Source: Escherichia coli
GTDB lineage: Bacteria > Pseudomonadota > Gammaproteobacteria > Enterobacterales > Enterobacteriaceae
Assembly (NCBI RefSeq): GCF_003334335.1
Contig: NZ_QOWQ01000017.1
Strand: one strand, 5' to 3'
DNA length: 64,000 nt
Shown: piece by piece, positions 13,057 through 16,716 of the stretch
Layout of the letters: each line of letters begins with the position of its first letter
Position numbering within the stretch: position 1 is the first letter of the stretch
Made by a program: the position numbers and the translations under genes
Notes under the pieces: generated by a model
The model's input: only the letters and a program-made list of their open reading frames with translations
What the model was told of the DNA's origin: nothing
Databases searched by the model: none

Positions 13057-14022
13057 ATGAGTAAACCCATTGTGATGGAACGCGGTGTTAAATACCGCGA
13101 TGCCGATAAGATGGCCCTTATCCCGGTTAAAAACGTGGCAACAGAGCGCGAAGCCCTGCTGCGCAAGCCGGAATGGATGAAAATCAAGCTTCCAGCGGAC
13201 TCTACACGTATCCAGGGCATCAAAGCCGCAATGCGCAAAAATGGCCTGCATTCTGTCTGCGAGGAAGCCTCCTGCCCTAACCTGGCGGAATGCTTCAACC
13301 ACGGCACAGCAACGTTTATGATCCTCGGCGCTATTTGTACCCGCCGTTGTCCGTTCTGTGATGTTGCCCACGGTCGCCCGGTAGCTCCTGATGCCAATGA
13401 ACCAGTGAAACTGGCTCAGACCATTGCCGATATGGCGCTGCGTTATGTGGTTATCACCTCCGTTGACCGTGATGACCTGCGCGATGGCGGTGCCCAGCAC
13501 TTTGCGGATTGCATTACTGCCATTCGGGAAAAAAGCCCGCAAATCAAAATTGAAACTCTGGTGCCGGATTTCCGCGGTCGTATGGATCGTGCTCTGGATA
13601 TTCTGACTGCAACGCCACCAGATGTGTTCAACCATAACCTGGAAAACGTACCGCGTATTTACCGTCAGGTACGGCCTGGTGCAGATTACAACTGGTCGCT
13701 GAAGCTGCTGGAACGCTTTAAAGAAGCGCATCCGGAAATCCCGACCAAGTCTGGTCTGATGGTGGGACTGGGTGAAACCAATGAAGAAATTATTGAGGTA
13801 ATGCGCGACCTGCGCCGTCATGGTGTGACGATGTTAACGCTGGGGCAATATTTGCAGCCAAGCCGCCATCACCTGCCGGTTCAACGTTACGTTAGCCCGG
13901 ATGAGTTCGACGAAATGAAAGCCGAAGCGCTGGCGATGGGCTTTACCCATGCTGCATGCGGTCCGTTTGTCCGCTCTTCTTACCACGCCGATTTGCAGGC
14001 GAAAGGGATGGAAGTTAAGTAA
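13057..14022 (+). CDS. lipA: Lipoyl synthase (radical SAM)
   Basis: 321-aa ORF with CPNLAEC and CTRRCPFC cysteine clusters. Confidence 0.95.
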
Positions 14023-14122: not shown

Positions 14123-14326
14123 TCACTCTTTATGAGAGAGCTTTTCAGCCTGAAGATCAACGTCTGCGCCTTTTTTCGCCGCAGCATCGTCATCATTCAT
14201 CGCCTTCTTGAACCCTTTAATGGCCGCTCCAAGGTCTCCGCCCAGCGTACGTAACTTCTTAGTCCCAAACAGCAGAACGACCAGCGCCGCAACTACCAGC
14301 AGTTTGGTAATACTAATCTCACCCAT
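14123..14326 (-). CDS. tatE: Twin-arginine translocase subunit TatE
   Basis: 67-aa [36 protein letters not shown]... Confidence 0.93.
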
Positions 14327-14454: not shown

Positions 14455-15248
14455 TCATAATAATTGCGGCGGCGCAAAGCGACGGTTGTTTAAGACGGGC
14501 AGTTGCGCGCGCACCTGACGCACACGTTCGGGCGTCACTTCCGCCATAATGAGTGCAGGCATTTCTGACGCTGCCGCAATGGTGACGCCAAAGGGATCTA
14601 TAATCCGGCTTTGACCGATATTTTTGTTCCCGCACTCCCCCGCCGCCACCATATAACAGGTGGTATCCAGCGCACGAGCGGCAAGCAACGTTGACCAGTG
14701 ATGCTCTTTGAGCGGCCCGCGAACCCAGGCGGCAGGAAGTACCAGGATTTCAGCTCCCTGTAATGCCTGTGCCAGCGCCAGCTCTGGAAAGCGTAAGTCA
14801 TAACAGGTCATCAGCCCGACCTTCATCCCTTCCACCTCCAGTAACGGAGCGATTTCATTACCAGCATCAACACGGCGTGATTCCTGAATGGCAAATGCAT
14901 CATAGAGATGCAGTTTGGCATAACGGGCGACGATGTTTCCTGCCTGAAGTGCCACCAGCATATTCCATGCGCGCCCCGGCGTTGAAGGAACATGAATCGT
15001 CAGAATTGTCGTCATCATGTTACGTTTACTTTCTCGCCGTAAAGTCCGAGGAATTCGCCTTCCAGCAGCTGTGCTGATTTAACCGATAGATCTGCATCAT
15101 GATCATCGCGCGCCAGCAATGCTTCCGGCAGGACAAACAGCGATACGTCGTTTTCCGCCGCCTGCGCCATCAACGAGGCACAAATCTCAGCGTTCTTTTC
15201 CCACACAGATGTAACAGCAAACTGTCCTGCGGCAACCAGCATTGCCAC
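14455..15248 (-). pseudogene. ybeM: Nitrilase/C-N hydrolase family gene split into two overlapping frames (77-aa N-terminal piece 15015..15248; 187-aa C-terminal piece 14455..15018)
   Basis: Two adjacent minus-strand ORFs in different frames that together look like one C-N hydrolase; junction ...aacATGATGacg... has stop TGA overlapping ATGATG. Confidence 0.75.
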
Positions 15249-15334
15249 CTCCTGTCAGAGTCGTAAAATTCGCCAACGACGATTATTCGGCGTTACACTT
15301 ATCACTCATACAAATCAAATAGCAGGATTTTGCA

Positions 15335-15718
15335 GTGTTACAACTTCTTTTAGCAGTTTTTATTGGCGGTGGTACGGGAAGCGTGGCGAGATGGCTGTTA
15401 AGTATGCGATTTAACCCACTGCATCAGGCGATTCCGTTGGGGACGCTGACAGCAAACCTGATTGGGGCATTCATCATAGGAATAGGATTCGCATGGTTCA
15501 GCAGGATGACGAACATTGATCCAGTGTGGAAAGTATTAATCACCACCGGATTTTGTGGCGGTCTAACAACCTTCTCAACATTTTCGGCAGAAGTGGTGTT
15601 TTTGTTACAAGAGGGCCGCTTTGGCTGGGCATTACTGAACGTTTTCGTCAACCTTCTGGGGTCTTTTGCCATGACCGCACTGGCATTCTGGCTGTTTTCG
15701 GCCTCAACCGCACACTAA
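15335..15718 (+). CDS. crcB: Fluoride channel CrcB/FluC
   Basis: 127-aa four-TM ORF, GTG start. Confidence 0.92.
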
Positions 15719-15723
15719 AGACC

Positions 15724-15754
15724 AAAAAAAACCCGCTGATTAAGCGGGTTTTGA
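15724..15754. terminator. Bidirectional rho-independent terminator between convergent crcB and cspE
   Basis: Hairpin aaaaaaaACCCGCTgattaAGCGGGTttt. Confidence 0.75.
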
Positions 15755-15771
15755 ATTCTTGCTGACGTATC

Positions 15772-15981
15772 TTACAGAGCGATTACGTTTGCAGCAGAAG
15801 GGCCTTTGGCACCGTTAGTGATTTCGAACTCTACGCGCTGACCTTCAGCAAGAGTTTTAAAACCATTAGTCTGGATTGCAGAGAAGTGTACGAACACGTC
15901 TTTGCTGCCGTCTTCCGGAGTAATGAAACCGAATCCTTTGGACTCATTAAACCACTTAACGTTACCTTTAATCTTAGACAT
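15772..15981 (-). CDS. cspE: Cold-shock-domain protein CspE
   Basis: ORF 15772..16011; internal ATG at 15981 gives 69 aa [20 protein letters not shown]... Confidence 0.93.
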
Positions 15982-16155
15982 CAAAATTACCTTTACATGA
16001 AAAATAGACACAAATGCTGTGTCGGTTACCAGTACACCAATTGTGGTACGCTTTGTCCAGTGTAACTTTACTAAAAAGTGATAAAAGTCGCGTTATTTTT
16101 GATGTTACTTATTTTAGCTATTGATTTTAAAGAAGTTACTAAAACTTCATTTGTC

Positions 16156-16716
16156 TCAAAACTGAAAGCGCATCCAGGCAAAGTACACATTGCCATTGTT
16201 GTAGGTACCCGGAATGTAGGTCATCTGAAAAGTCACTGGGCCATAACCCACGGAGGCCAATGGCAGTAGAACCGGGAGAGGGATGTAATTCCAGTTATCG
16301 CGTGCCGTTACGCCAGCGGTGAATCCCAGACCTAAATGAAAATTTTCATCCGCCAGCGGTCGCCAGGTACTTTCCCATCCGTATCCGGCAATCGGTTCCC
16401 ATTTGTTCCACGAGTCCTTAAATGCCATGGCATACAGGCCATGCCAGTTTCCTTTTTCATCCCAACGCGACAGGCCAAAACCGCCACCCCACGGTCGCTC
16501 GTTATAGCGATCGGTTTTTTCTTTGTCGTAAGCGAAACGTGCATGCCAGGTGATGGCAGGAATATATAAATCATAATGTTCAGGCTGTTGCCAGGTTTGT
16601 GCAATATTTTCTCTAAACGTTGTCATCCACTCATCTGCGTTAGCAAAAACTTTACCAACGCTGATTAACTGAATAAAAACAAAGGAAAAGATAGCGACAT
16701 ATTTACTCACGTTCAT
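16156..16716 (-). CDS. pagP: Lipid A palmitoyltransferase PagP
   Basis: ORF 16156..16740; start at 16716 gives 186 aa [14 protein letters not shown]... Confidence 0.92.

Follow-up and report, generated by a model that had tools for sequence, protein, structure and literature searches.

We analysed a window of 64,000 nucleotides of Escherichia coli DNA, in which ybeM lies on the minus strand between tatE and crcB, with lipA, cspE and pagP also in the neighbourhood, and this set of genes marks the region as E. coli. Two minus-strand open reading frames had been reported here in a preliminary description of the sequence, and both are found in the ORF listing, one of 77 aa that opens with GTG (15015..15248) and one of 187 aa that opens with ATG (14455..15018). 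The upstream frame ends in GTA ACA TGA and the downstream frame begins ATG ATG ACG, the two ORFs having in common the four nucleotides ATGA at 15018..15015. For the upstream ORF, the frame and the stop that had been described are correct, but the start is not: the true start of ybeM is ATG 15242, and GTG 15248 can be set aside. The Shine-Dalgarno sequence AGGAGG overlaps this GTG, whose first base is the final G of the motif. ATG 15242 stands at a proper spacing from AGGAGG, with a pairing energy to the anti-Shine-Dalgarno of -11.6 kcal/mol, and it is also the codon at which RefSeq begins the gene. With this start the N-terminal product has 75 aa, not 77. A scan for promoters and terminators gave counts that were not above those of shuffled sequence, and none usable for ybeM. 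The features of the locus are collected in Table 1.

Table 1. Features of the ybeM locus and its neighbours, in window positions.
Feature	Position	Strand	Evidence or remark
ybeM pseudogene, whole	14455..15242	-	788 nt (intact: 789 nt, 262 codons); agrees with the RefSeq 'frameshifted' CDS of strain 300709 and with b4581
Shine-Dalgarno AGGAGG for ATG 15242	15248..15253	-	Sequence; anti-Shine-Dalgarno duplex -11.6 kcal/mol
Codons 1-66, native frame, with catalytic Glu40 (GAA, 15125..15123)	15045..15242	-	Same as intact alleles
1-nt deletion site	15043..15044	-	Alignment: G between these bases absent relative to intact CTCGGAC-G-TTTACGG
Nine out-of-frame codons, then premature TGA 15017..15015	15015..15044	-	Translation; NCBIfam profile positions 66-75 unmatched
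Downstream 187-aa ORF, residues 76-262 of the intact protein	14455..15018	-	Starts at internal Met76-Met77
lipA	13057..14022	+	
tatE	14123..14326	-	
crcB	15335..15718	+	

The two ORFs had been proposed to be the N- and C-terminal parts of one C-N hydrolase, and profile searches bear this out, since the pieces occupy complementary spans of the same families. Against Pfam CN_hydrolase (PF00795), the N-terminal piece aligned to model positions 2-44 with an E-value of 0.022, a weak match when taken alone, and the C-terminal piece to positions 86-255 with an E-value of 1.3e-32, a significant match of the kind expected for the nitrilase superfamily. Against NCBIfam NF033621 (de_GSH_amidase), the two pieces matched profile positions 2-65 (85.3 bits) and 76-260 (344.6 bits), while positions 66-75 were matched by neither. 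Unlike intact YbeM, a single 262-aa ORF whose YPE3 allele scored 452 bits, each of the window pieces falls below the curated cutoff of this family (355 bits), with the loss of profile positions 66-75; by descent the gene thus belongs to NF033621, but its encoded products do not. A weak match to NF007757 (PRK10438 amidohydrolase; 58 bits, cutoff 249) concerns a family different from that of ybeM.

Intact ybeM is the E. coli orthologue of Nit1, a 262-aa amidase of the nitrilase superfamily. RefSeq and NCBIfam name the intact allele 'deaminated glutathione amidase' (WP_000959109.1), and an exact look-up of the 262-aa protein returned the UniProt entry YBEM_ECO57, "Deaminated glutathione amidase". 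The 2017 Nit1 paper of Peracchi and colleagues in PNAS is said to have also reported active E. coli homologues. In the alignment with PDB structures, residues 5-255 of the intact protein, nearly the whole query, matched the Nit domain of NitFhit (1EMS) within one chain (E 3e-29). The catalytic triad of NitFhit, which we take from the structural literature to be Glu54/Lys127/Cys169, aligns with E40/K110/C147 of YbeM. The Glu-Lys-Cys triad is conserved in this alignment and annotation assigns the same reaction to Nit1 and YbeM; the homology to the Nit domain of NitFhit is distant, and the copy in the window is broken and presumably without activity. Nit2 (omega-amidase; PDB 2W1V and 4H5U), which belongs to the same superfamily and has the same fold, also matched intact YbeM, with E-values of 3e-22 to 1e-26.

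In the window the triad is not carried on one polypeptide. Glu40 is encoded by the 75-aa ORF, and Lys110 (AAA, 14916..14914) and Cys147 (TGT, 14805..14803) by the 187-aa ORF. Because the Glu is parted from the Lys and the Cys, and because both pieces lack residues 67-75, the pieces are predicted to yield no full-length product and no active enzyme.

An alignment to intact orthologues had been proposed as a check on the locus, and it locates the indel. We aligned the window with the allele of strain 300709, which RefSeq labels 'frameshifted', and with two intact 789-nt alleles from strains YPE3 and P31. The alignment contains a single gap: where the intact alleles read CTCGGACGTTTACGG, the window and strain 300709 read CTCGGAC-TTTACGG. 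The missing G falls in codon 67 (CGT to C-T), between window positions 15044 and 15043 and 26 nt upstream of the TGA. The preliminary description had seen the signature of a frameshift at the junction of the two ORFs, where the TGA does overlap an ATGATG in another frame, but the lesion that shifts the frame lies upstream of that stop. Codons 67-75 of the window read LYGEKVNVT instead of RLRRESKRN, and the ATGATG at the head of the second ORF corresponds to Met76-Met77 inside the intact protein. Except for the missing G and one synonymous SNP of the window, the coding sequence is the same as that of intact YbeM (YBEM_ECO57; WP_000959109.1; NF033621), with which the window shares both protein family and genomic context. 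Between the frameshifted allele of 300709 and the intact allele of YPE3, the missing G is the sole difference across 821 aligned nt, with zero substitutions, which makes the lesion young in comparison with the divergence of the alleles. The absence of further decay would fit a young pseudogene, with no positive sign of relaxed selection.

This defined indel, together with the 'frameshifted' label in RefSeq and the listing of ybeM as pseudogene b4581 in MG1655, supports the earlier reading of the locus as a frameshift pseudogene. We consider it very likely that ybeM in the window is inactive through the inherited loss of a single G in codon 67, and that the loss is tolerated because the gene is dispensable. 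Translation from ATG 15242 would give 66 native residues and 9 wrong ones before it stops at the premature TGA. The other 187 codons would be left in the -1 frame, which by chance opens with the internal Met76-Met77, and it is this internal pair that makes the locus resemble two overlapping genes. The lesion would be a true inherited mutation, common to a large natural clade within E. coli to which K-12 belongs, and its tolerance would follow from the dispensability of a metabolite-repair activity, as eukaryotic knock-outs and a second lesion in E. coli (see below) lead us to infer. An ATGA overlap of stop and start can support termination-reinitiation, and the 187-aa fragment might be made.

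Of 5,426 complete E. coli genomes, 5,425 contain the ybeM locus, under the name "deaminated glutathione amidase". A probe of 80 nt, with the deletion at its centre, was 100% identical in 859 of these 5,425 genomes (~16%), and the lesion is both heritable and reproducible, being also curated in MG1655. Among the carriers are laboratory strains and strains isolated from river water, human stool and farm environments, and they come from many labs and hosts. The other ~84% of complete genomes had no exact match to the deletion-allele probe, and nearly all of them differ from it at at least one position; intact status was inspected in YPE3 and P31, which have single 262-aa ORFs with the extra G. 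The statement that K-12 carries ybeM as a pseudogene and other E. coli strains have it intact therefore holds for MG1655 (b4581) on the one hand and for YPE3 and P31 on the other. Some matches to the locus were unusual. Strain UTME-9 (NZ_CP157110.1) has a much more divergent ybeM region, with 92.8-94.6% identity and the annotation 'nitrilase-related carbon-nitrogen hydrolase'; in NZ_AP041809.1 the locus was matched in two places that cover only 84% of the query; and plasmids account for two of the locus matches.

A comparison of the window with MG1655 over 4,001 nt gave 4 differences, at 13416, 14815, 15133 and 15145. At 15133 and 15145, MG1655 encodes Ala, and both the window and the intact alleles Val (V37A and V33A, respectively). 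The difference at 14815 leaves Gly143 unchanged (GGT to GGG, a synonymous change) and is private to the window: none of the 5,426 complete genomes has it, and none matched a 901-nt query at 100%. The best 16-kb matches of the window scored 29538 bits, an estimated two or so mismatches short of perfect. The window thus resembles MG1655 in the 1-nt deletion of ybeM (b4581), in the two ORFs, in the neighbours crcB, tatE and lipA and in the annotation as a frameshifted pseudogene, and differs from it in lacking the V33A and V37A changes of the N-terminal piece and in having its private synonymous change. Judged by sequence, it comes from a close relative of K-12 MG1655 that shares the lesion, and not from MG1655 itself.

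The K-12-type allele is present in 365-368 complete genomes, and a probe that also spans the deletion shows that these carry the lesion. About 490 genomes carry the window-type, that is, non-K-12-type, frameshifted allele, and the ybeM pseudogene is therefore not a peculiarity of K-12. The lesion is a natural polymorphism, older than the K-12 sublineage and present in a wider natural clade. Within the K-12 sublineage, V33A and V37A lie 12 nt apart and next to the catalytic Glu40, and no intermediate with either change alone was seen in a spread sample of genomes. The pair could be drift after inactivation, or the product of one multi-base event; with two nonsynonymous and zero synonymous changes, the K-12 differences in ybeM are too few to interpret.

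A functional two-piece protein and a programmed frameshift had been kept in reserve in the preliminary description, and neither found support, there being no recoding signal and only a weak Shine-Dalgarno sequence for the second ORF. In the first of these readings, the 75-aa and 187-aa products, the second made by reinitiation at the ATGA, would form an active or regulatory amidase. The overlap of stop and start as ATGA would suit it, as would the fact that every catalytic residue is still encoded on one or other piece, and the allele is common (16% of complete genomes) without further decay. However, residues 67-75 are absent from both pieces and the N-terminal piece ends in 9 unrelated residues, and the sequence ahead of the second ORF pairs weakly with the anti-Shine-Dalgarno (-3.1/-2.7 kcal/mol, compared with -11.6 at the true start). 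Further, no naturally bipartite orthologue was found among those examined, the intact alleles and the PDB homologues being single chains, the ATG-ATG is no more than the codons for Met76-Met77 inside the intact chain, and the youth of the allele accounts for its undecayed state. We therefore regard a split enzyme as very improbable, and hold equally doubtful the broader proposal that the frameshift allele is alive, with the reinitiated 187-aa fragment either joining the 75-aa piece as a split amidase or acting alone as a substrate-binding or regulatory remnant.

Less probable still is programmed recoding, by which a -1 ribosomal frameshift or transcriptional slippage would restore some full-length protein. 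The 64-nt zone 15078..15015 is indeed open in both frames, and a -1 shift within it would rejoin them, but it contains neither an in-frame X XXY YYZ heptamer nor a homopolymer run of four or more bases, and no Rfam family matched within the ybeM locus. The surrounding sequence is the same in intact alleles apart from the G, and the context therefore did not evolve for shifting. Nor is the two-frame layout conserved, since ~84% of complete genomes are without the exact deletion allele and the inspected YPE3, P31 and PDB homologues are single ORFs or chains. Finally, a sequencing or assembly artefact, with the G really present and ybeM intact in this strain, is scarcely credible: single-base indels are the commonest assembly error and the private SNP at 14815 is in no complete genome, but the deleted base lies outside any homopolymer (GAC-G-TTT), and the identical allele in 859 independent complete assemblies, including that of MG1655 with its curated pseudogene, cannot be an assembly error.

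The frameshift in codon 67 is not the only lesion of ybeM. A second, independent 1-nt deletion, GATGGC[G]CAGG, lies near codon 26 (~window 15166) in alleles in which the G of codon 67 is present. This deletion gives a called form of 242 aa starting MCLVDGQAAEND (P0003), which is on 275 contigs and falls in the database cluster of the C-terminal piece, and the allele was found in 9 complete genomes; a third lesion may lie behind a form of 215 aa (P0002). Independent inactivations support the dispensability of ybeM. Nit1-type enzymes hydrolyse deaminated glutathione, a side-product of transaminases, and the loss of Nit1 has been reported to do no harm in mice, yeast and Arabidopsis (PMC7041631), which makes loss in E. 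coli plausible. Taken with this analogy, the E. coli alleles suggest that the Nit1-type glutathione-repair amidase is dispensable in this organism.

The frameshift pseudogene of ybeM is already known and curated. RefSeq flags the CDS of strain 300709 as pseudo, and exact look-ups returned the 187-aa piece as the UniProt entry 'PUTATIVE PSEUDOGENE: Putative protein YbeM [E. coli K-12]' and the K-12 version of the 75-aa piece as "Putative protein YbeH" (YBEH_ECOLI). A literature search on ybeH found nothing informative on expression. In MG1655, ybeM has been used as a neutral 'pseudo gene' site for chromosomal integration (PMC4788846, PMC7242477). To this our analysis adds the precise placement of the indel, a corrected start, the frequency of the allele and its carriers outside K-12, the split triad and the second independent lesion.

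Other observations were made at and around the locus. An out-of-frame ORF of 56 aa inside ybeM (14823..14993, minus strand) begins MFLQRRGAH, and the same peptide has been reported to cause filamentation when a 29-bp fragment of UTI89 ybeM is overexpressed from pBAD24 (PMC6206680). An NsrR ChIP peak has been tied to ybeM in K-12 and CFT073, the latter strain also showing down-regulation of ybeM under NO stress (PMC5320621); the region of the window relevant to this peak, comprising the 5' region of ybeM and the crcB-ybeM intergenic sequence, is ~14900..15330. In the cspE region (15724..16200, minus strand), the Rfam cspA thermoregulator RF01766 was matched with 124.8 bits (gathering score 78), although the search range clips its 5' end.

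The importance of the finding is small, since curation of the reference genome already covers the pseudogene, which is a routine neutral site for integration. The ybeM lesion is nevertheless a natural polymorphism, carried by ~16% of complete genomes, and not an oddity of laboratory K-12. If the amidase is dispensable, as suggested above, K-12 would offer a natural null background for studies of deaminated-glutathione metabolism.
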